From Opitutales bacterium (lineage in GTDB: Bacteria > Verrucomicrobiota > Verrucomicrobiia > Opitutales > PNEW01), in contig OY829953.1 in NCBI GenBank assembly GCA_963692525.1, positions 3,908,720-3,972,719 of the forward strand: DNA of 64,000 nucleotides, written 5' to 3'. Positions within the stretch are counted from its first letter, which is position 1. Each line of letters starts with the position of its first letter. The notes below the pieces were generated by a model. It ran no database searches. It was not told the origin of the DNA and saw only the letters and a list, made by a program, of their open reading frames with translations. A program made the position numbers and the translations under genes. This document shows positions 11,715 through 64,000 of the stretch, one piece after another.

Positions 11715-11970
11715 ATTCTTCGTCACCGTCTTCGTCTGCCTTTTCGTCTTTTATTTTTTAGCTGGTTTTAAGTAAAATATTCTTACAATCCAAGGTGGAG
11801 CGGGCTGCGATTCGGCTGAGCTCATCGAAGTCCTGTCCGACATAGCCTTGGCGACGGCTGATCCCTAGCACGCTTCTTCAATTACGACTTTCTCAAACGC
11901 GCTAGGGACAGCGCGTTCCACCTTTATATATTAAAGAATACTTACGATGAGGCAGACGAAGACGAAGATT
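11715..11970. mobile_element. Family-A element, 256 bp, filled form
   Basis: AATTCTTCGTC...CTTCGTC on the left and GACGAAGACGAAGATT on the right. The interior is GGTGGAGCGGGCTG + 54-nt core module + CCCTAGCACGC...GCGCTAGGG hairpin + CAGCGCGTTCCACC. It lies between convergent genes. Confidence 0.6.
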
Positions 11971-13975: not shown

Positions 13976-14353
13976 ATGAAAAAAGTTTTTTTAGTTGAAG
14001 ATAATAAAGACAATGCTGATTTGGTTCTCGATATGCTCAATGGCATATACGAGATAAAAATTTTCACCCACGCTATCGAGCTGTTTAATTATTTAGACCA
14101 GCCGGATTCTATCGTCCCCGATGTATTTCTCATGGATATTAATTTACCGGGGATGACCGGGGATGAGATATTAGAGAACATTCGTATTTATTCTAAATAT
14201 GACAAGGTCCCCGTCATTGCTGTTACCGCGCAGAAATTGGGAAATGATGAAGAACACTATATTAGTGTCGGTTTCGCCGGCTATATCGCCAAGCCCATTA
14301 CGGATAGCGATATTCTCATTCAATCAATTGAAGCTGCAGCCAATGTCAGCTAA
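13976..14353 (+). CDS. Stand-alone response-regulator receiver (CheY-like)
   Basis: LVEDN, FLMDINLPGMTG, VIAVTA and YIAKP receiver motifs are present. There is no output domain and no kinase nearby. Confidence 0.85.
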   Translation: MKKVFLVEDNKDNADLVLDMLNGIYEIKIFTHAIELFNYLDQPDSIVPDVFLMDINLPGMTGDEILENIRIYSKYDKVPVIAVTAQKLGNDEEHYISVGFAGYIAKPITDSDILIQSIEAAANVS

Positions 14354-14448
14354 TAAAAGCGGCGATACTCCCTCACTGACATTGAGCGAGGTTTTGCGTT
14401 AAGCAAACCACCCTTCCATTGGGAAGTGGATGGCTTACCCGATAACAG

Positions 14449-14802
14449 CTCTTCGTCTGCCTCTTAGTCTTCGTCCCAGACGCCCTAATACTTCATGATT
14501 ATTGTAGCTTAAGATGGAGCGGGCTGCGATTCGGCTGAGCTCATCGAAGTCCTGTCCGACATAGCCTTGGCGACGGCTGATGCATAGCACGCTCCTTCAA
14601 CTACAACTAACTTAAACGCGTTAGGGATCAGCCATCCTGGAGGGCCACGCTCCTGCCTGTCCGACATAGCCTTGGCATCGGCTGATCGTGGCCGTTAATA
14701 ACATTTCAAAGCGGACGCAATGGAATGCGTCCCTCCATTCCTTATAAAATAATAGGATCTCTATAACAGACGAAGAGCCTGACGTGGACAAAGACGAAGA
14801 TT
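14449..14802. mobile_element. Family-A element, 354 bp long form
   Basis: CTCTTCGTCTGC on the left and GACAAAGACGAAGATT on the right. It is nearly colinear with 26405-26820, including the GGAGGG-GGCCACG...CGTGGCC-GGACGCAatggaaTGCGTCC-CTCC module. Confidence 0.6.
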
Positions 14803-14824
14803 AGTAGAGCTGCCGCCTCACCGC

Positions 14825-15595
14825 TTAAACCGCGGTCCAACCTCCGTCTACCATGAGCGTATGACCTGTAACCAGATCGGAAGCGGAACTCGCGAGATAG
14901 ATAACGGCACCTAGAATATCCTCAGGCCGGCCGATGCGTTGTATAGGTTGACGCTCAAAATATTTTTCCTTGAAGTCCTCATTTTCAAATAAGGATTTTG
15001 TCAGTGGTGTTAATAAATAGGTGGGACCAATTGCGTTTACATTGATTCCATATTCTGCCCACTCCGCTGCCAGGGTACGGGTTAAATTGATAACTCCCGC
15101 CTTGCTTGCTGTATACGATGCCCGTTCATCAGATCCGATTACACCATTTATGGAGGAGATATTGATAATTTTCCCGGATCGCTTTTTTATCATTTCACGG
15201 GCGACAGACTGACTCGTAAAAAAGACCCCTTTTAAATTCACGTCCATCACGCGGTCCCACTCTTCCTCCGAAGTTTCGATCGCTTTTTTCCTGATGATGA
15301 CACCGGCATTGTTGACGAGAATATCAATCCTGCCAAAACTCTCTACGGCTCTTTCCACCATTTGCTCTACACTCTTTATTTTCCGCACGTCCAGTTCCAC
15401 GGTGATCGCCTCTCTCCCTCCTTTCCGAACTGCTTCAGCTGTCTCAAAGGCTGCTTCCTCCTTACCCGGGAGTTCGGTGACGACAACAGTTGCACCGGCT
15501 TGAGAAATTCCCAGGGCTATGGATCGCCCGATCCCGGAACCGCTTCCAGTGATTATCGCCACTTTCCCCGTTAAATCAAAATTTACTCCCTCCAT
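14825..15595 (-). CDS. Short-chain dehydrogenase/reductase (FabG-like)
   Basis: Contains TGSGSGIGRS, NNAG and YTASKAG motifs. Confidence 0.85.
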   Translation of the reverse strand: MEGVNFDLTGKVAIITGSGSGIGRSIALGISQAGATVVVTELPGKEEAAFETAEAVRKGGREAITVELDVRKIKSVEQMVERAVESFGRIDILVNNAGVIIRKKAIETSEEEWDRVMDVNLKGVFFTSQSVAREMIKKRSGKIINISSINGVIGSDERASYTASKAGVINLTRTLAAEWAEYGINVNAIGPTYLLTPLTKSLFENEDFKEKYFERQPIQRIGRPEDILGAVIYLASSASDLVTGHTLMVDGGWTAV

Positions 15596-22541: not shown

Positions 22542-22573
22542 TTTTGACTTTTTGACCTTTTGACTTTTTGACT
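22542..22573 (+). repeat. (TTTTGACY)4 octamer array
   Basis: ttttgact ttttgacc ttttgact ttttgact, ending 8 nt before ATG 22582. It is identical to the array at 34291-34322. Confidence 0.9.
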
Positions 22574-26208: not shown

Positions 26209-26404
26209 AATTTCTTTCGATTAATTTTATAAAGCAGAATATTAAGCCAAATTTTAAAAAGCAAAAGAATATAAACAGCTATACCTATAATTCACACCCT
26301 GGACTCCAGATATATCTTCGGTTGTAGTTTTCGATCAAAACACGGCCGAATAACGAAGCAACCCTGGTAATAATAATCAACGGACTTAGGATAACGTGTA
26401 ATAG

Positions 26405-26820
26405 CTCTTCGTCTTCGCTTGCCACGTCGTAGACTTCTGCGAAGACGGGTATGCCTTCATCGTCTTGTAGGTTACACCTTGATACTTCATAAATATTGTA
26501 GCTTAAGGTGGAGCGGGCTGCGATTCGGCTGAGCTCATCGAAGTCCTGTCCGACATAGCCTTGGCGACAGCTGATCTCAAGCACGCTTCTTCAATTACGA
26601 CATAATTAAACGCGCTAGGGACAGCGCGTTCCACCTTAATATTGCCATAGAAATATGGAGGGCAACGCTCCTGCTTGTCGGCCATAGCCATGGCGTCGGC
26701 TGATCGTGGCCGTTGACAACATTTCAAAGCGGACGCAATGGAATGCGTCCCTCCATTCCTTATAAAATAATAGGATCTCTATAACAGACGAAGAGACTGA
26801 CGGGGACGAAGACGAAGATT
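26405..26820. mobile_element. Family-A element, 416 bp, longest copy
   Basis: CTCTTCGTCTTCGC on the left and GACGAAGACGAAGATT on the right, with all modules present (see findings). ORF-track entries 26285..26584 and 26503..26727 lie inside it and are not credible. Confidence 0.65.
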
Positions 26821-27127
26821 AATAGAATACACACCCCTCCGGGGCTTAGTTAAAGCTCCCCTCGTAACAGGGCAGAAGTGTGCGTGGCTAGTTTTTAATA
26901 GCGCTTCGACCTAAGTATAATCGGAAGAGTGGATGGGTGGATTATTTCCATCAGTCAACATCCAGTCTTCCAAACTTCTATCCATCCACTTTCTTTTATT
27001 ACACCTTCACCCGGATAGCCAGTCCTGGAATAATAAGCACCGAATTACCTCTTATTATATAAAGAAAGAAAGATTCAGGAATAACATGAAAAGTGCCTGA
27101 TATTGTTAACTTAAAATAAATACTGAA

Positions 27128-34108: not shown

Positions 34109-34266
34109 GATGGAACGCGCTGTCCCTAGCGCGTTAGTTATAAGTATTAATAATAGAAGCGCGCTGAGGACCAACATTCGCCAAGGCTATGGCAGGCAGG
34201 ACTTCGATGAGCTCCCTTCGGCATGAGCTCAGGGCCGAATGCAGCCGAATCGCAGCCCGCTCCACC
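34109..34266. repeat. Family-A core in inverted orientation, long-insert variant, no terminal repeats
   Basis: GATGGAACGCGCTGTCCCTAGCGCG ... CGCAGCCCGCTCCACC, carrying the extra TTCGGC/GCCGAA hairpin variant also seen at 63920-63965. Confidence 0.7.
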
Positions 34267-34290: not shown

Positions 34291-34322
34291 TTTTGACTTT
34301 TTGACCTTTTGACTTTTTGACT
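34291..34322 (+). repeat. (TTTTGACY)4 octamer array
   Basis: The same 32-mer as 22542-22573, located 76 nt upstream of ATG 34399. Confidence 0.9.
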
Positions 34323-35283: not shown

Positions 35284-35448
35284 ATCTTAATCGTCGAGAT
35301 ACCGAGATGTAATTAACAGGTAATTGAAAAAAATAAAGTTGATGATTCAGGATTCGGGAAGACAGTGATCAGTCGCTTTCGTTGTCTCTGTGGTGAAATT
35401 AAAGTTGCTCGCATTTTGCACTTCTTTGTCATTGCGAAGGTGGAACGC

Positions 35449-35560
35449 GGTGTCCCTACCGCGTTTAATAGTTACATTGAGTTAAGAAGCGCACTGAGAT
35501 CAGCCGTCGCCAAGGCTATGTCGGACAGGACTTCGATGAGCTCAGCCGAATCGCGGCGTG
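35449..35560. repeat. Family-A partial element (inverted orientation, G/C hairpin allele)
   Basis: GGTGGAACGCGGTGTCCCTACCGCG ... ATCAGCCGTCGCCAAGGCTATGTCGGACAGGACTTCGATGAGCTCAGCCGAATCGC. Confidence 0.7.
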
Positions 35561-37835: not shown

Positions 37836-37995
37836 GGTGGAGCGGGCTGCCTGACCGCCATAGCCTTGGCGTCGGCTGGTTCCCTAGCACGCTTCTTCAT
37901 TTACGACTTCATACAACGCGCCGAAGATCAGCCGTCGCCAAGGCTATATCGGAGAGGACTTCGATGAGCTCAGCCGAATCGCAACACGTTCCACC
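37836..37995. repeat. Family-A core, fully palindromic form with a core module on both arms
   Basis: GGTGGAGCGGGCTGC + CCATAGCCTTGGCGTCGGCTGG + central hairpin + ATCAGCCGTCGCCAAGGCTATATCGG...GAGCTCAGCCGAATCGC + GTTCCACC. Confidence 0.7.
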
Positions 37996-38085
37996 ATGAT
38001 CCTATATTAAATAAGCGGGACGAAAGGGAATCACCCCTTACGCCCCTTAGTTTAAACTTAAAAACTGCTAACTATTTCCTACGCC

Positions 38086-41673: not shown

Positions 41674-41838
41674 GTCAAAAGGTCAAAAAGGGAGGAGCGC
41701 TGATGCGCGTATTAAATTATAAGATAATTAACTTTATACAAGCATTGCTACTTTTTACTGATCACTGATAAATGATTTCTGTCTAGACATCCTGCATCAT
41801 CCAACGTTTTGACCTTTTGACTTTTTGACCTTTTGACT
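41674..41838. repeat. Inverted pair of octamer arrays flanking a 116-bp AT-rich core
   Basis: (GTCAAAAR)2 at 41674-41689 and (TTTTGACY)4 at 41807-41838, lying between convergent genes. Confidence 0.85.
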
Positions 41839-42556: not shown

Positions 42557-43414
42557 TTAGAATGGAGCGATGTTTAAGACCGCTTTCTCCTCCGGAGTGA
42601 AGGCCGCGATCTGCTCGGTGCTCATTCCACGAAGGTGTGTGTTCGGCGGGATCCCCGCTTCTAGACCCCACATCCGGCGCTCCTCTGCGGTCATCGCGGC
42701 GCGCAACTCCGGTGGGACAAAGCGATAAGAATCGTTGAACCCCTTGATCCACCATCGCTGGAAGTAAAAGATAAGTGAATACCTCGGGGAATCGCTAGAA
42801 TTGGTACCGCCGGTATGCCATAATCCCGAATCCCACATGACGACAGAGCCGGCTGGTGCTTCAGCAATGATCCATCCCGGAGGCAAAGTTTCAGGCTCTT
42901 CTGGTGGAACTTCAAGTGACAAATGGGATCGCGGCCAGATCATCGGTCCCCCGGTCTCTTTCGTGAAATCAGACACCGCCCACACCGACTGAATAGCCAT
43001 GGGGTAATGCTTGCCATCAATAAATGGTTTTACCGTAAAGTCGGGCCAATCGGTGTGTAGATTTCCTCCATGCTTGCTCCAATTCTTTTTACCGGTCGGC
43101 AATGGTGTCCGGATTGTGACATCGTGCGCAAACATGTCATCACCCAACACGCGCCGTGCAACCTCAACCGGCTCCGGGTTGCGCAGTGGCATCCCATAGA
43201 AATGAGGGTGCTTGCTTTGGACATTGAATGACATACGCAGATTTTCATTCTGTAACCCATATTTTCGCCCTAGGGTCTCTTCAGCATCCAAGGTCTCTTC
43301 GATCGCCTGCTTCGTCGCATCGATCTCCGAAGATGACATAACAACGTGAATAATCGTGTATCCCTCACGTTTAAGTTCAGTTGTATGTCGGTCGATGTCC
43401 AAAGTCATCATCAC
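42557..43414 (-). CDS. Phytanoyl-CoA dioxygenase (PhyH) family protein, third paralog
   Basis: Contains LKREGYTII, GNLHTDWP, MIWPRSH and LWHTGG motifs. Confidence 0.75.
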   Translation of the reverse strand: MMMTLDIDRHTTELKREGYTIIHVVMSSSEIDATKQAIEETLDAEETLGRKYGLQNENLRMSFNVQSKHPHFYGMPLRNPEPVEVARRVLGDDMFAHDVTIRTPLPTGKKNWSKHGGNLHTDWPDFTVKPFIDGKHYPMAIQSVWAVSDFTKETGGPMIWPRSHLSLEVPPEEPETLPPGWIIAEAPAGSVVMWDSGLWHTGGTNSSDSPRYSLIFYFQRWWIKGFNDSYRFVPPELRAAMTAEERRMWGLEAGIPPNTHLRGMSTEQIAAFTPEEKAVLNIAPF

Positions 43415-46279: not shown

Positions 46280-46338
46280 CTGGAGGGCCACGCTCCTGCC
46301 TGTCGGCCATAGCCTTGGCGTCGGCTGATCGTGGCCGT
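46280..46338 (+). repeat. Solitary core-in-stem module
   Basis: CTGGAGG-GCCACG-ctcctgcc-TGTCGGCCATAGCCTTGGCGTCGGCTGAT-CGTGGCC-GT, identical in plan to the internal modules at 14638-14696, 26655-26713 and 61319-61378 (inverted). Confidence 0.8.
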
Positions 46339-49592: not shown

Positions 49593-49598
49593 CTATTA

Positions 49599-49674
49599 GT
49601 CAAAAGGTCAAAAAGTCAAAAGGTCAAAAAGGAAATGCGATTAAGCTTTTGACTATTTGACCAGTACCTTTGAC
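49599..49674. repeat. Inverted octamer arrays filling the gap between two cistrons
   Basis: (GTCAAAAR)4 at 49599-49630 starts 6 nt from the ATG (49592, minus strand). The degenerate CTTTTGAC TATTTGAC ... CTTTGACC at 49646-49674 abuts the upstream stop at 49675. Confidence 0.85.
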
Positions 49675-50139: not shown

Positions 50140-50145
50140 ATATCA

Positions 50146-50296
50146 GTCAAAAGGTCAAAAAGTCAAAAGGTCAAAAGGATATGCGTGAACGCGATTAAGC
50201 GTACCGAGGGCGAAGCCCGACATCCTCAAATGTGGAAATAACTTTCACCCTTAAACTTTTTGACCTTTTGACCTTTTGACCTTTTGACCTTTTGAC
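50146..50296. repeat. Inverted octamer arrays flanking a C unit
   Basis: (GTCAAAAR)4 at 50146-50177 starts 6 nt from ATG 50139 (minus strand). The C unit is at 50201-50232 and (CTTTTGAC)5 at 50256-50296. A GCGAC aagg GTCGC hairpin follows. Confidence 0.9.
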
Positions 50297-53874: not shown

Positions 53875-54075
53875 CACCCCAGCGGGGTGTAACATTCGTA
53901 GCCCGCAGCGTAAGCTGTGGGTTAAAATATGTGCCATATAAATTAAGCCCCAGCGGGGCGACACAATAACCGTCGAAAGCGATGTTGTGTCGCCCCGCTG
54001 GGGCTCTGAATTATAAAATATCACTCCCACCCACAGCTCACGCTGTGGGCTAAACCTATGCCGCCCCTCCGGGGC
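53875..54075. repeat. Mirror-symmetric array of five hairpins
   Basis: CACCCCagcGGGGTG (53875-89). CCCGCAGC-GTAA-GCTGTGGG (53902-21). A 20-bp perfect stem, GCCCCAGCGGGGCGACACAA / TTGTGTCGCCCCGCTGGGGC (53947-54004). CCCACAGC-TCAC-GCTGTGGG (54030-49). GCCCCtccGGGGC (54063-75). Confidence 0.85.
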
Positions 54076-54206
54076 TGATAGAGTACGTTAAGGATAAGTT
54101 TTAACATCTTCCTTTTTACATTAATTCGTAAGTATCTAACAGTGATGAGGGGGAAGCCGATGACCAAGATAACCGTGATTATACTTTGCCTTAATGCCTT
54201 TTATAA

Positions 54207-60500: not shown

Positions 60501-60627
60501 CAGTGGCCCTCCAGAAGGGCTGTTCCAGAGCTCGCTTCTTTAATTACGACAAATCTAACGCGGTAGGGACACCGCGTTCCACCTTGATTTTGTATTATAT
60601 AGACGAAGAGGTAGACGTAGACGAAGC
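60501..60627. repeat. Family-A right half (G/C hairpin allele) with right terminus
   Basis: CAGTGGCCCTCCAG ... AACGCGGTAGGGACACCGCGTTCCACC ... AGACGAAGAGGTAGACGTAGACGAAGC. Confidence 0.65.
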
Positions 60628-61197: not shown

Positions 61198-61545
61198 ATA
61201 ATCTTCGTCTGCGTCTTTAATAAGGCTCCTTAGAAATGGAGGGACGCACGGAGCATGTCGGCCATAGTACCGCAACAGCGAAGACGACGGCTGATTGCGT
61301 CCGTTTGACAAGATGGTTACGGCCACGATCAACCGACGCCAAGGCTATGGCCGACAGGCAGGAGCGTGGCCCTCCAGGCGACGGCTGACCCCAAGCGCGC
61401 TTCTTCATTTACAACTCACTTAAACGCGCTAGGGACCAACCTTCGCCAAGGCTATGGCTGGCAGGACTTCGATGAGCTCAGCCGAATCGCAGCGCGTTCC
61501 ACCATGATATTATAGTTAATGATTGGACAGACGAAGACGAAGATT
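61198..61545. mobile_element. Family-A element, 348 bp, inverted module order, with an extra nested core
   Basis: AATAATCTTCGTCTGCGTC on the left and GACGAAGACGAAGATT on the right. The GGACGCA/TGCGTCC hairpin carries a 47-nt core-like insert in its loop. Confidence 0.6.
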
Positions 61546-63440: not shown

Positions 63441-63484
63441 AACTAAGCTGAATGGTGTTAGGATAGAACGTATGGATTTGTCGT

Positions 63485-63692
63485 ATTAGTCTTCGTCTCT
63501 GGCTAATATAGATTATCTTGCAATCCATGGTGGAGCGGGCTGTCCCTAGCACGCTTCTTCAATTACAACTTAATCAAACGCGCTAGGGACAGCGCGTTCC
63601 ACCTATCTATTCTATTAATAACTGGATGGACGAGGAGGCTGACCCGTCTTCGCAGTAGTCTACGACGTGGCAAGCGCGGACAGAGACGAAGA
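63485..63692. mobile_element. Family-A element, empty form (no core module)
   Basis: ATTAGTCTTCGTC on the left and GACAGAGACGAAGATG on the right. The interior GGTGGAGCGGGCTG-TCCCTAGCACGC ... GCGCTAGGGACAGCGCGTTCCACC is an uninterrupted 26-bp-arm palindrome. Confidence 0.6.
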
Positions 63693-63727
63693 TGATTGTT
63701 ATACATAGCAGTGAATCAAGCGCGGGC

Positions 63728-63811
63728 CACCCCGGAAGGGGTGAAGGTAAATAGCCAGGGGTTTTAAACCCCTGGTACAATGATTATAATATAAGCGCCC
63801 TGAAGGGGCGC
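63728..63811. repeat. Three GC-rich hairpins
   Basis: CACCCCggaaGGGGTG (63728-43), CCAGGGGTTTtAAACCCCTGG (63755-75) and GCGCCCtgaagGGGCGC (63795-811). The CACCCC...GGGGTG-type first hairpin and overall plan match the 53875-54075 family. Confidence 0.8.
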
Positions 63812-63861
63812 AGGCATTCTGATTACCCTGAAGTTTTGGTTAGAGCGTATGGATTCGTCAT

Positions 63862-64000
63862 ATTAGTCTTCGTCTCTGGCAAATATAGATTATCTTGCAA
63901 TCCATGGTGGAGCGGGCTGCGATTCGGCTGCATTCGGCCCTGAGCTCATGCCGAAGGGAGCTCATCGAAGTCCTGTCCGACATAGCCTTGGCGACGGCTG
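63862..64000. repeat. Family-A element, filled form, truncated by window end
   Basis: The same 85-nt left part as 63456-63542, but GGGCTG is followed by the long core module (CGATTCGGCTGCATTCGGCCCTGAGCTCATGCCGAAGGGAGCTCATCGAAGTCCTGTCCGACATAGCCTTGGCGACGGCTG). Confidence 0.7.

Follow-up and report, generated by a model that had tools for sequence, protein, structure and literature searches.

The small dispersed repeats SDR1-8 of Nostoc punctiforme and its relatives were reportedly described by Elhai et al. in 2008, in Genome Res 18:1484, as sequences of 21-27 nt that carry no gene, have no obvious transposon ends and are dispersed in intergenic DNA. They are also said to occur inside other repeats and hairpin hosts as well as inside one another, and to show exact presence or absence between related strains. 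We know of no explanation of their mechanism since the 2008 description. The accessible text of PMC5861425 reports SDRs and SDR-like repeats within the Nostocaceae only. REPINs, another kind of repeat, are inverted doublets of REP sequences that form one hairpin; their enzymes are the RAYTs (TnpA-REP, HUH-Y1), the REP consensus has 5' GT[AG]G, and the BIMEs of E. coli are mosaics (PMC3116915, PMC6006769).

We analysed a stretch of 64,000 nt (the window), which contains a layered family of intergenic repeats. The closest analogue of this family, which here occurs outside the cyanobacteria, is the group of SDRs known from Nostoc-type cyanobacteria. The puzzle addressed is how sequences of 21-30 nt, with neither a gene nor ends that a transposase could hold, reach exact positions. 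Since the strains differ by single modules at orthologous sites, this question can be tested by comparison.

A hairpin host and its nested modules

Two direct repeats of 85 nt, 93% identical and 377 nt apart, lie close to the end of the window (63458-63542 and 63835-63919). A previous sequence-only reading had recognised this pair, with positions off by 1-2 nt, and correctly described its shared end: both copies terminate in CAATCCATGGTGGAGCGGGCTG. Copy 1 runs on into TCCCTAGCACGC and forms, as had been claimed, an uninterrupted palindrome. This 75-nt hairpin repeat, H (63529-63603), has arms of 28 nt each (63529-63556 and 63576-63603), 86% complementary, around a loop of 19 nt. It is built of two inverted 26-nt arms, each opening with GGTGG. 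The predicted fold of H reached -45.1 kcal/mol as RNA (z = -9.9) and -24.4 kcal/mol as DNA (z = -7.9), and single arms were self-complementary only weakly (hairpin z about -1.3). At the level above, H is the central GC-rich hairpin of a long palindromic composite element with TCTTCG/GACGAA-rich ends.

Copy 2, whose H starts at 63906, carries an insert of 82 nt after GGTGGAGCGGGCTG. Past 63919 it enters a module with CATAGCCTTGGCG (63981-63993), within which the window stops. The assembly L126, 99.94% identical to the window across 12.4 kb, shows what lies beyond this point: the insert, 82 nt in all, gives way to TCCCTAGCACGC, after which come the same loop and GCGCTAGGGACAGCGCGTTCCACC. This makes copy 2 a complete H that contains an insertion, which bears out the 80-odd-nt module with a core motif proposed at this place. 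The tandem copies are not an assembly duplication, because they are distinguished by 6 of 85 positions and by their content, L126 has the same arrangement, and copy 1 is conserved in L120, an assembly of strain clade A. Nor is the recurrence of H and core due to chance: GGTGGAGCGGGCTG (up to 2 mismatches) occurred 11 times in the window vs 0.19 expected, and the core 13-mer 15 times vs 1.23 expected. The features are the following.

63458-63542, plus strand: direct repeat copy 1, left half of composite element 1, with the outer TCTTCG-rich terminus, an AT-rich spacer and the outer left arm of H
63529-63603, plus strand: H with both sites empty, GGGCTG^TCCCTAG at 63542/63543 and CTAGGGA^CAGCGCG at 63589/63590; empty identically in clade A (L120), filled and rearranged in clade B (L122)
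63604-63692, plus strand: right half of composite element 1, ending in CAGAGACGAAGA, the inverted repeat of TCTTCGTCTCTG at 63490-63501 (12 nt, 100% complementary)
63835-63919, plus strand: direct repeat copy 2, left half of composite element 2, with the outer left arm of H (63906-63919) at its end
63920-63971, plus strand: e24 split by e28, i.e. CGATTCGGCTG (63920-63930) and AGCTCATCGAAGT (63959-63971) on either side of e28, CATTCGGCCCTGAGCTCATGCCGAAGGG (63931-63958); an identical 52-nt e24+e28 unit lies at 34201-34252, minus strand
63972-64000, plus strand: core cut by the window end, CCTGTCCGACATAGCCTTGGCGACGGCTG, to be followed by one further base (T) and the rest of H
11794-11922, plus strand: H whose left arm holds e24 (11808-11831) and core (11832-11861) and whose right arm is empty
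61380-61503, plus strand: H whose right arm holds an inverted core (61436-61465) and an inverted e24 (61466-61489)
60518-60592, plus strand: H with both sites empty in the window; clade A has a 30-nt inverted core at 60569/60570
37836-37995, plus strand: H filled in both arms, left with a 31-nt core (37850-37880), right with inverted core (37928-37957) and inverted e24 (37958-37981)
34109-34266, minus strand: H with e24+e28 (34201-34252) and core (34171-34200)
26507-26635, plus strand: H with e24 (26521-26544) and core (26545-26574)
14513-14635, plus strand: H with e24 (14527-14550) and core (14551-14580); right arm replaced by fusion to a G-type element
35439-35553, minus strand: degenerate H with core (35500-35529) and e24 (35530-35553)
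14639-14741, plus strand: G-type hairpin host, GGAGGGCCACGCTCCTG^...^TCGTGGCCG, with core (14656-14685) and without e24
26658-26759, 46282-46338, 61319-61375 (minus strand): further G-type hosts of the same arrangement; an empty G-type host was observed in L120

The 82-nt insert consists of three nested units, each with its own boundaries: the core, 30 nt, CCTGTCCGACATAGCCTTGGCGACGGCTGA; e24, 24 nt, CGATTCGGCTGAGCTCATCGAAGT, located between the H arm and the core; and e28, a 28-nt paralogue of e24 that lies inside it. The nesting order is thus outer element, H, core, e24, e28. The 64 kb hold eight copies of e24, two of e28 and about 14 of the core, one of which lies directly beyond the window end and was read in L126. 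The copies are without exception intergenic, and convergent, divergent and tandem genes are all represented among their settings. The copy at 11794-11922 has, exactly as had been read, a 54-nt version (11808-11861) at the same point.

Modules sit directly 3' of the CTG that closes the outer 14 nt of either H arm, and their orientation relative to the arm is constant (wrong-way modules in 0 of 27 arms). The core was found in left arms of H, in right arms (inverted, in mirror orientation) and in the unrelated G-type hairpin. Newer units lie nearer the arm or within the previous unit. The modules are without terminal inverted repeats, without target duplication and without a gene of their own, and the core, e24 and the 54-nt unit folded no better than shuffled sequence (z = +0.2 to +0.7).

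The sequence-only reading had taken the GGCTG on both sides of the insert for a short direct repeat of the junction and had raised the question whether the junctions are always GGCTG^. The former view does not hold, and the junctions vary. The 5' flank takes five forms (GGGCTG, GCGCTG, GCGGTG, GTGTTG and CTCCTG) and the core ends in GGCTGA, GGCTGT, GGCTGGT, GGTTGG, TGTTGG or AGCTGA. A target-site duplication was rejected because flank and module end both vary and the empty sites, which have no duplicated bases, are one base off the prediction. The apparent GGCTG repeat, different from copy to copy, is part of the module itself. Every insert in this lineage is preceded by (C/T)TG. At the 3' side there is no common cleavage motif: the last letters of cores are TTGG, or CTG with 1-2 bases added, those of e24 are AAGT and those of e28 AGGG.

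Exact and inexact differences between strains

The compared strains are about 96% identical in coding DNA (overall range 92-96%) and are represented by several long-read assemblies, among them ERZ28669063, ERZ25069191, ERZ25071132, ERZ25067264 and ERZ25766727, the last with a closed circular chromosome of 5.05 Mb, ctg362391_21x_c. Coding-sequence comparison gave the strain tree ((window,A),B),C, and the phylogenetic signal was conflicting, the three groupings that are possible being backed by 82, 40 and 13 informative sites.

Three orthologous sites showed exact presence or absence, of the core alone, of e24 alone and of e24+core, with a junction microhomology of 0-1 nt. The 54-nt e24+core at 11808-11861 is missing from the orthologous H of clade A, which is exactly empty (L145, L146); in clade B the whole element is missing at this site. 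At 61466-61489, precisely the 24 nt of e24 are missing in clade A (L120, L121), and the arm variant AACGCGCTG and the unusual core variant found only there (CCAGCC...GGTTGG) are unchanged with or without e24. At 60569/60570, clade A has an exact 30-nt inverted core and clade B is empty like the window. All states were recovered with exact strings. In the case of the e24 and the e24+core indel, each state was present in two independent assemblies from different samples, and the filled core state was present in L120 only.

These differences, together with the filled state of copy 1 in clade B and its empty state in the window and clade A, provide the polymorphic occupancy that the sequence-only reading had proposed to look for in related genomes. 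They also indicate, as does the presence of the core in the G-type hairpin and in either arm of H, that modules move independently of their host. The idea of a mobile module at a fixed host position thus stands as regards a discrete, host-independent unit and a fixed site, and is amended in that there are three nested units, not one. With discrete, module-sized junctions, the modules are shown to be entities gained or lost independently, not stages of a deletion series.

Not every strain difference is an insertion, because microhomology deletions of repeats occur at neighbouring loci. Such imprecise losses use the 6-nt repeats AACGCG and CCAAGG. In the H at 34109-34266, clade A has a deletion between two AACGCG repeats that kept GGTGGAACGCG, the first 11 nt of the arm, and clade B has a CCAAGG-mediated deletion at 37.9 kb. 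A central deletion joined two cores at copy 1 (63529-63603) in clade B, and clade A misses a whole composite of about 490 bp (26365-26853). Chimeric H/G fusions with joints inside cores occur at 14.6 kb and 61.38 kb. These cases show that homologous recombination and microhomology deletion between copies shuffle modules into chimeras.

We considered the possibility that there was only loss, the filled form being ancestral and the shorter and empty forms arising by replication slippage or exact excision, with no insertion. The deletions seen directly (34.1-34.27 kb in clade A; 37.9 kb and copy 1 in clade B) fit this explanation, and for two of the three exact indels, those of 54 and 24 nt, exact excision is as compatible as insertion. 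Yet we find it improbable. At the three module-sized indels the microhomology is 0-1 nt, and the indel ends match boundaries independently defined in other copies. A deletion from GGCTG to GGCTG would leave an extra base that is missing from the empty sites, where exact two-arm symmetry is restored. The core at 60.5 kb in clade A is, on the sequence comparison, most simply read as a gain, because neither the window nor B has a core at this site, so that parsimony favours gain there. Furthermore, the core is common to two unrelated hosts, e24 occurs in unrelated foreign repeats, and the e24 copies are identical though their host cores differ.

Gene conversion could instead have transferred the filled or empty state between H copies, filled hosts multiplying as a whole and the modules being immobile. 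Arms of 14-26 nt, common to the H copies, could support short tracts, and the H/G chimeras testify to recombination between copies; the conflicting signal between strains and the presence or absence of whole composites point the same way. At 61.4 kb, however, both the right-arm-type flank and the locus-specific variant of the core stayed the same, so that the tract would have to be limited to e24 and at most 3-4 nt per side. There is also no flanking homology for the core in the G hairpin or for e24 in two of its foreign contexts (B and C, below), and the absence of e24 from all sampled clade A copies would be left unexplained. We judge this explanation to be as improbable as that of loss alone.

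The module e24 was identical in 8 of 8 copies in the window, with adjacent cores differing by 12.5%. Mean pairwise difference amounted to 0% in e24, 12.5-14% in the core and about 31% in the inner stem, and 0 of 24 sites segregated in e24 vs 9 of 30 in the core (Fisher p = 0.003). The window has 8 copies, clade B has 5-6, and about 62 kb of orthologous sequence of clade A has 0; in the latter, the closest sampled strain clade, H and cores are present and e24 is absent. The exact 24-mer was also found in three other repeat contexts on 13 metagenome contigs, and two of these contexts share nothing else with this H-repeat family; the contigs were retrieved by exact match, so that the sample is biased toward invariance. 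e24 is preceded by CACT in context B and by AGCT in context C, not by CTG.

No matches to e24 or the core were found in viral contigs, none to a filled H in a plasmid collection, and none to the module sequence strings in a literature search. Across the genome collection, the 14-mer GGTGGAGCGGGCTG gave 119 chance matches in GC-rich genomes, none with the rest of the family. Rfam returned no family at E <= 0.1 for the repeats and the foreign contexts, and at E <= 1 sub-threshold, chance-level matches only. In the window as a whole, the only above-threshold Rfam match was Acido-Lenti-1 at 54030-54076. e24 was rejected as a hammerhead or other small ribozyme, there being no Rfam match and, by eye, no conserved core motifs. 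A TnpB/omega-RNA or insertion-sequence end was rejected as the source of context B, because no transposase is among the neighbouring genes, which encode FeoB, an iron-dependent repressor and a Na/H exchanger.

That the copies of e24 are perfectly conserved may be the result of selection for a function instead of youth. On this account e24, and perhaps the core, would be a binding site or RNA motif recruited repeatedly, with sharp edges that reflect function. Besides the invariance, an 8-bp palindrome at the centre of e24, TGAGCTCA, is what one would expect of the site of a dimeric protein, and in context C e24 caps a long conserved hairpin. Function alone does not, however, produce exact 24-nt presence or absence at orthologous sites; the Rfam result and the occurrence of copies in every kind of intergenic setting also speak against it, and we hold it to be very unlikely as a full account. 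It can be combined with mobility and is no substitute for it. An artefact, with the tandem pair duplicated during assembly or the indels arising from errors in long-read assembly, can practically be dismissed: although the sources are metagenome assemblies and one clade B contig has 6x coverage by its name, the two copies differ, their arrangement recurs in a second assembly, and two of the three indels have both states replicated.

Cut-and-join at hairpins as a candidate mechanism

We consider it probable that this is a layered hairpin-repeat family in which discrete units of 24-30 nt are exactly gained or lost after the CTG of an arm and are then shuffled. As such, the nested modules behave like the smallest known class of mobile DNA. 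Our best guess for the process is single-strand cut-and-join at REP-like hairpins. The repeat would be extruded as a hairpin, a trans-acting single-strand DNA nicking-and-joining enzyme would cut after CTG, and this enzyme would join short single-stranded segments at the cut. Candidates would be enzymes of the HUH/Y1 type, e.g. REP-associated tyrosine transposases or the TnpA of IS200/IS605. Cut-and-join at hairpins would account for sites that are exactly empty, for the lack of a duplication, for the use of both arms in a strand-symmetric way and for the restriction to hairpin hosts.

Taken on its own, the involvement of a trans-acting nicking-and-joining enzyme at CTG is a tentative proposal. 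In the window no transposase gene was found, and Pfam searches found no HUH/Y1, RAYT or other candidate enzyme in the window, in the orthologous regions of about 60 kb of clades A and B or in about 20 kb of C; apart from an IS3-family element, an IS1595-family transposase and a phage integrase in other strains, the Pfam lists had nothing of this kind. Symmetric cutting after CTG predicts inserts that end exactly in CTG, which the observed module ends do not, and the CACT and AGCT that precede e24 in its foreign contexts also argue against cutting at CTG.

A further-reaching version, possible though doubtful, is that a dedicated machinery adds single strands of 24-30 nt after CTG, with stacking on the arm side, and that e24 spreads among unrelated repeats and distant bacteria. 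New units would be placed beside the arm, giving a time-ordered stack with e24 the youngest, then the core, then the inner stem, a polarity resembling acquisition at a fixed entry site. e24 would pass from one host repeat to another, unrelated one, and also among bacteria, marine and otherwise, that are only distantly related. If this were true, e24 would be the smallest horizontally spreading mobile DNA described. The presence of e24 in the window strain and clade B and its absence from sampled clade A make it possible to ask which genes co-vary with it. Irrespective of mechanism, modules alter the length and the hairpin stems of intergenic repeats and so confound repeat annotation, searches for small RNAs and terminators, and strain typing.

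Comparison with known repeat systems

The mobile G+C-rich clusters of yeast mitochondrial DNA measure 30-50 nt, lie in AT-rich intergenic surroundings, are polymorphic between strains and are sometimes nested or in tandem; they are reported with short target duplications. Our modules share with them the small size, the GC-rich units in AT-rich intergenic DNA, strain polymorphism and nesting, but belong to another compartment and kingdom and lack the duplications. ERIC, Correia, BOX, RUP and classical MITEs are short, non-coding, intergenic and hairpin-forming, with long and short variants. The outer composite element, with its inverted TCTTCG/GACGAA-rich ends, resembles this group, whereas the inner modules, without terminal inverted repeats or target-site duplication, differ from classical MITEs.

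Like IS200/IS605 and its palindrome-associated miniature derivatives, the modules leave exact empty sites and no target duplication, and they may likewise depend on hairpins in single-stranded DNA. Insertion 3' of a short fixed sequence would be a further parallel: all inserts in this lineage follow (C/T)TG, and in the foreign contexts B and C e24 follows CACT and AGCT. Elements of this type depend on subterminal hairpins at either end and span about 100 nt or more. The modules measure 24-30 nt and, because they fold no better than shuffled sequence, are without such hairpins; nor do their 3' ends share a cleavage motif.

H bears some resemblance to a REPIN, each of its inverted arms beginning with GGTGG: two inverted units of about 26 nt have GTGG at positions 2-5, and together they fold into a strong hairpin (z = -7.9 to -9.9), whereas the single arms are weak (z about -1.3). 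As mosaics of a few modules, the H loci are also similar to BIMEs. In contrast to REPINs, however, Pfam found no RAYT gene, either in the window or in what was read of three further strain clades. What moves in a REPIN is the entire doublet and not an insert of 24-30 nt, and the small in-arm modules are without counterpart in the REPINs described.

The SDRs are approached most closely, in the length of the modules (24-30 nt), in their many dispersed intergenic copies, in their nesting in repeats, hairpin hosts and one another, and in exact presence or absence between strains without target duplication, at three sites. Set against SDRs as described, the features here are the fixed entry after CTG, the mirror use of both arms, the age order from the arm inward and an e24 exactly common to unrelated metagenome repeats. 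The host lineage also differs, not being one of the Nostocaceae. Sigma-54 activator genes adjoin the locus and, to our knowledge, cyanobacteria are without sigma-54; because of these genes, the Acido-Lenti-1 RNA and the thrC relatives, the nearest named of which are from Gemmatimonadota (about 65% identity), the host is not cyanobacterial. Several PhyH genes are present, as in Poribacteria. SDR-like behaviour, regarded in the accessible text of PMC5861425 as a peculiarity of Nostocaceae, is thus met with in an unrelated, uncultured marine lineage.

Three nested units in a hairpin-forming host

The 85-nt direct repeats described by the sequence-only reading near the end of the window (copies 1 and 2) lie at 63458-63542 and 63835-63919, are 93% identical and 377 nt apart, and both finish in GGTGGAGCGGGCTG as claimed. 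In copy 1 this end is followed by TCCCTAGCACGC, giving the uninterrupted palindrome that had been noticed, a 75-nt hairpin repeat (H) at 63529-63603 with 28-nt arms that are 86% complementary. Its fold is much more stable than that of shuffled sequence, both as RNA (-45.1 kcal/mol, z = -9.9) and as DNA (-24.4 kcal/mol, z = -7.9). Copy 2 continues with an insert carrying CATAGCCTTGGCG, inside which the window ends. The insert was completed from another assembly, of what is virtually the same strain (L126; ENA ERZ28669063, ctg27034; 99.94% identical over 12.4 kb). It is 82 nt long, in agreement with the 80-odd nt first estimated, and is followed by TCCCTAGCACGC, the copy 1 loop and the right arm. 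This makes copy 2 an entire H, interrupted by an insertion where originally proposed, and the 54-nt version reported at 11794-11922 sits at the same point. Matches to the arm motif numbered 11 (0.19 expected by chance) and to the core motif 15 (1.23 expected). H forms the GC-rich middle of a larger palindromic element whose ends are rich in TCTTCG/GACGAA; each of the 85-nt repeats makes up the left half of one such element. H appears to resemble a REPIN in that it consists of two inverted units, each starting with G-GTGG, as against the REP consensus GT[AG]G.

The view of the insert as a single module was not borne out, since three nested units were found. The core is 30 nt long (CCTGTCCGACATAGCCTTGGCGACGGCTGA). 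A 24-nt unit, e24 (CGATTCGGCTGAGCTCATCGAAGT), always lies between arm and core. A 28-nt unit, e28 (CATTCGGCCCTGAGCTCATGCCGAAGGG), is a paralogue of e24 with a common CTGAGCTCAT centre and sits inside e24, after the GGCTG of the latter. The 54-nt form is thus e24 plus core and the 82-nt form e24 plus e28 plus core; a core-only form of 30-31 nt is also present (37850-37880).

Occupancy of H (ten copies, window plus short extension)
63529, 60518: both sites empty
11794, 14513, 26507, 35.5 kb, 61.4 kb (right arm, inverted): e24 and core in one arm
63906, 34266: e24, e28 and core
37836: both arms filled

Right-arm insertions are inverted and, on the other strand, are preceded by GCGCTG, as left-arm insertions are by GGGCTG; the opposite orientation was seen in none of 27 arms from the four strain clades examined. 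The units sit directly 3' of a (C/T)TG that ends the outer arm, in the form GGGCTG, GCGCTG, GCGGTG or GTGTTG. The GGCTG pair previously taken for a direct repeat left by insertion belongs to the core and varies (GGCTGA, GGCTGT, GGCTGGT, GGTTGG, TGTTGG, AGCTGA). There is no target duplication and empty sites are exact; unit boundaries and orientation relative to the arm are fixed, and the hosts form hairpins.

The core is also found on its own, with no e24, in an unrelated hairpin, G (GGAGGGCCACGCTCCTG^core^TCGTGGCCG), where the preceding flank is CTCCTG. Four core-filled copies of G lie in the window, one just beyond its end (L126) and more in other strains, and strain L120 has one empty copy (GGAGGGCCACGCTCCGTCGTGGCCG). 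At the junction of G and core e24 was never found, though the local CTG^CCTG is identical there. Of note, the G-type host closes with another conserved hairpin (window 14696-14741 and 26714-26759; L126 8503-8533), GCGGACGCAATGGAATGCGTCC then CTCCATTCC, the latter pairing with GGAGGG at the hairpin start. This makes G itself a structured element, about 100 nt long.

Exact differences between related strains

Through homologues of three window proteins, contigs were reached that represent three or more additional strain clades.

Coding identity to the window strain
Clade A: 95.9%
Clade B: 93.2%
Clade C: 91.9%

The tree ((window,A),B),C was favoured by 82 informative sites, with 40 and 13 for the alternative groupings, a sign of some recombination between strains. 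All intergenic regions with repeats varied in length from strain to strain, while the flanking genes were mostly 94-99% identical. Occupancy was indeed polymorphic, with three exact differences, each module-sized.

Module-sized differences (window positions)
61466-61489: arm-e24-core in the window, arm-core in clade A (L120, L121); right-arm-type flank and locus-specific core variant (CCAGCC...GGTTGG) unchanged; junction ambiguity 1 nt
11808-11861: e24 plus core (54 nt) in the window, exactly GGGCTG^TCCCTAG in clade A (L145, L146); microhomology 0 nt
60569/60570: empty in the window and clade B, exact 30-nt inverted core in clade A; microhomology 0 nt

Given the tree and the empty sites in the window and clade B, the simplest reading of the third difference is a gain in clade A. 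At copy 1, neither the window nor clade A has an insert in either arm of H. In clade B the outer arms are retained, and e24 with two head-to-head fused cores replaces the inner stem, as would be expected after a central deletion in a doubly filled H. In clade A, the exactly empty H (L145/L146 9461-9510, orthologue of window 11794-11880) carries further in a 17-nt tandem-like duplication (TCCCTAGCACGCTTCTTCA, CCTGGCACGCTTCTTCA, ATTACG). Its first bases, CCTG, are also bases 1-4 of the core, and it may represent a footprint or an abortive event.

We considered the possibility that the forms represent a continuum of deletions. Ordinary deletions do occur. The H at 34.1-34.27 kb is absent in clade A through a deletion between two AACGCG repeats that left the first 11 nt of the arm, and at 37.9 kb clade B shows one between two CCAAGG repeats. 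Strains have or lack composites of about 490 bp as wholes, and H/G chimeras have their junctions inside cores. Yet such events use 4-6 nt of microhomology, which module-sized indels do not, so that the two classes can be told apart and discrete junctions exist alongside ordinary deletions. The units are very probably discrete entities that are gained or lost independently, and exact orthologous presence or absence supports the original proposal of an independently mobile module with a specific position in a structured host repeat.

Other rearrangements were observed. Clade A (L145 10912-11013) is without the response regulator and short-chain dehydrogenase genes of window ~13976-15595, which the window strain and clade B possess; composite repeat elements bound this segment, which suggests repeat-mediated gain or loss. 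Beside copy 1, an IS3-family element (HTH_Tnp_1, HTH_21, rve) replaces a 123-aa gene in clade B (L122 8086-9338, L123 6971-9338), on a contig that carries the esterase gene region twice. Also seen were an IS1595-family transposase (L148 17580-18254) and a phage integrase (L144 14991-16244). Tandem arrays of 4-5 copies of an 8-nt unit (TTTTGACC/TTTTGACT), intergenic and near gene boundaries, have copy numbers that vary with the strain, both at 34.3 kb and downstream of copies 1 and 2; they are another repeat family, possibly regulatory. The Acido-Lenti-1 'RNA motif' may here itself be a dispersed repeat, because similar pairs of small GC-rich hairpins lie at ~26843-26890 and 38020-38060.

Other repeats in the window
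22542-22573, 34291-34322, 41807-41838, 50257-50296, + strand: 8-nt tandem arrays
49598-49630, 50145-50176, - strand: 8-nt tandem arrays
54030-54076, + strand: Acido-Lenti-1 RNA motif, 44.5 bits, above the Rfam threshold
63728-63775, - strand: Acido-Lenti-1, sub-threshold (22 bits), in the spacer between the two composite elements

Uniformity and foreign contexts of e24

All eight window copies of e24 are identical, including two split by e28. Among the eight cores next to them the mean difference is 12.5% (segregating sites 0/24 in e24 versus 9/30 in the cores, Fisher p = 0.003). The inner stems of H differ by about 31%; divergence therefore rises with distance from the outer arm.

Copies of e24 by strain group
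Window strain: 8
Clade B: 5-6
Clade A (~62 kb of orthologous sequence): 0, though H and cores are present
Clade C (21 kb): none of the family

Metagenome contigs were scanned for the e24 24-mer, with exact identity required and an insert allowed at the e28 position. The scan returned 13 contigs in three contexts; about 0.007 chance matches are expected, a rough estimate for a collection assumed to hold ~10^12 bases. Context A is a diverged H (GGTGGAACGGACTG, e24, a diverged core, TCCTTAGCGCG...), evidently from a relative. Context B is a ~150-nt repeat (CTTAGTGCTTCGATTCGC...AGGACTTAGC) at several unrelated loci (L132-L134, L137-L140, L142). In context C, e24 forms the tip of a conserved hairpin of about 110 nt (L135, L136, L141; RNA fold z = -4.9). 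The elements of contexts B and C have only e24 in common with the window family and gave no Rfam match; the module sequences themselves had no match in Rfam, viral contigs, plasmids or the literature. The apparent invariance of e24 across lineages is partly a sampling effect, because the search demanded exact identity.

Possible mechanism and relation to small dispersed repeats

The Pfam domain lists contained no transposase gene in the window. A trans-acting enzyme might nick single-stranded, hairpin-extruded repeats after CTG and then join short single strands at the nick; the best-known enzymes with such properties belong to the HUH-Y1 family, IS200/IS605 TnpA and the REP-associated RAYTs (PMC6006769). 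Yet the modules are without hairpins of their own, no cleavage motif is common to their 3' ends, and CTG does not precede e24 in contexts B and C. We offer single-strand nick-and-join enzymology after CTG only tentatively, as a rather doubtful proposal.

The 64 kb hold several PhyH (phytanoyl-CoA dioxygenase) and creatininase genes and one Kelch/mutarotase-sodium:solute symporter fusion (window 42557-43414; L130 17843-19537; L123 2498-3376), a content reminiscent of sponge-associated Poribacteria, in which PhyH is the most abundant domain family (PMC3909097). The lineage is not cyanobacterial, as indicated by the sigma-54 activators adjoining the locus, the Acido-Lenti-1 RNA, the PhyH genes and homologues in Gemmatimonadota, the nearest named ones.

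Small dispersed repeats (SDRs), reportedly described by Elhai et al. in 2008 from Nostoc and relatives, are said to be units of 21-27 nt that nest in one another and in hairpin hosts, are polymorphic among strains and are unexplained in mechanism. The behaviour of the window units matches this description. SDRs were reported only within Nostocaceae (PMC5861425). On grounds of lineage, the window units fall outside the SDR families as defined, yet are a variant of this kind of element. What makes the finding truly interesting is that a class of ultra-small mobile DNA, itself poorly understood, now reaches into a new lineage, and that the strain-resolved material at hand could reveal its mechanism. 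Compared with SDRs, the features here are a REPIN-like host, a fixed entry point, use of both arms, an apparent age order running inwards from the arm, and one unit common to foreign repeats.
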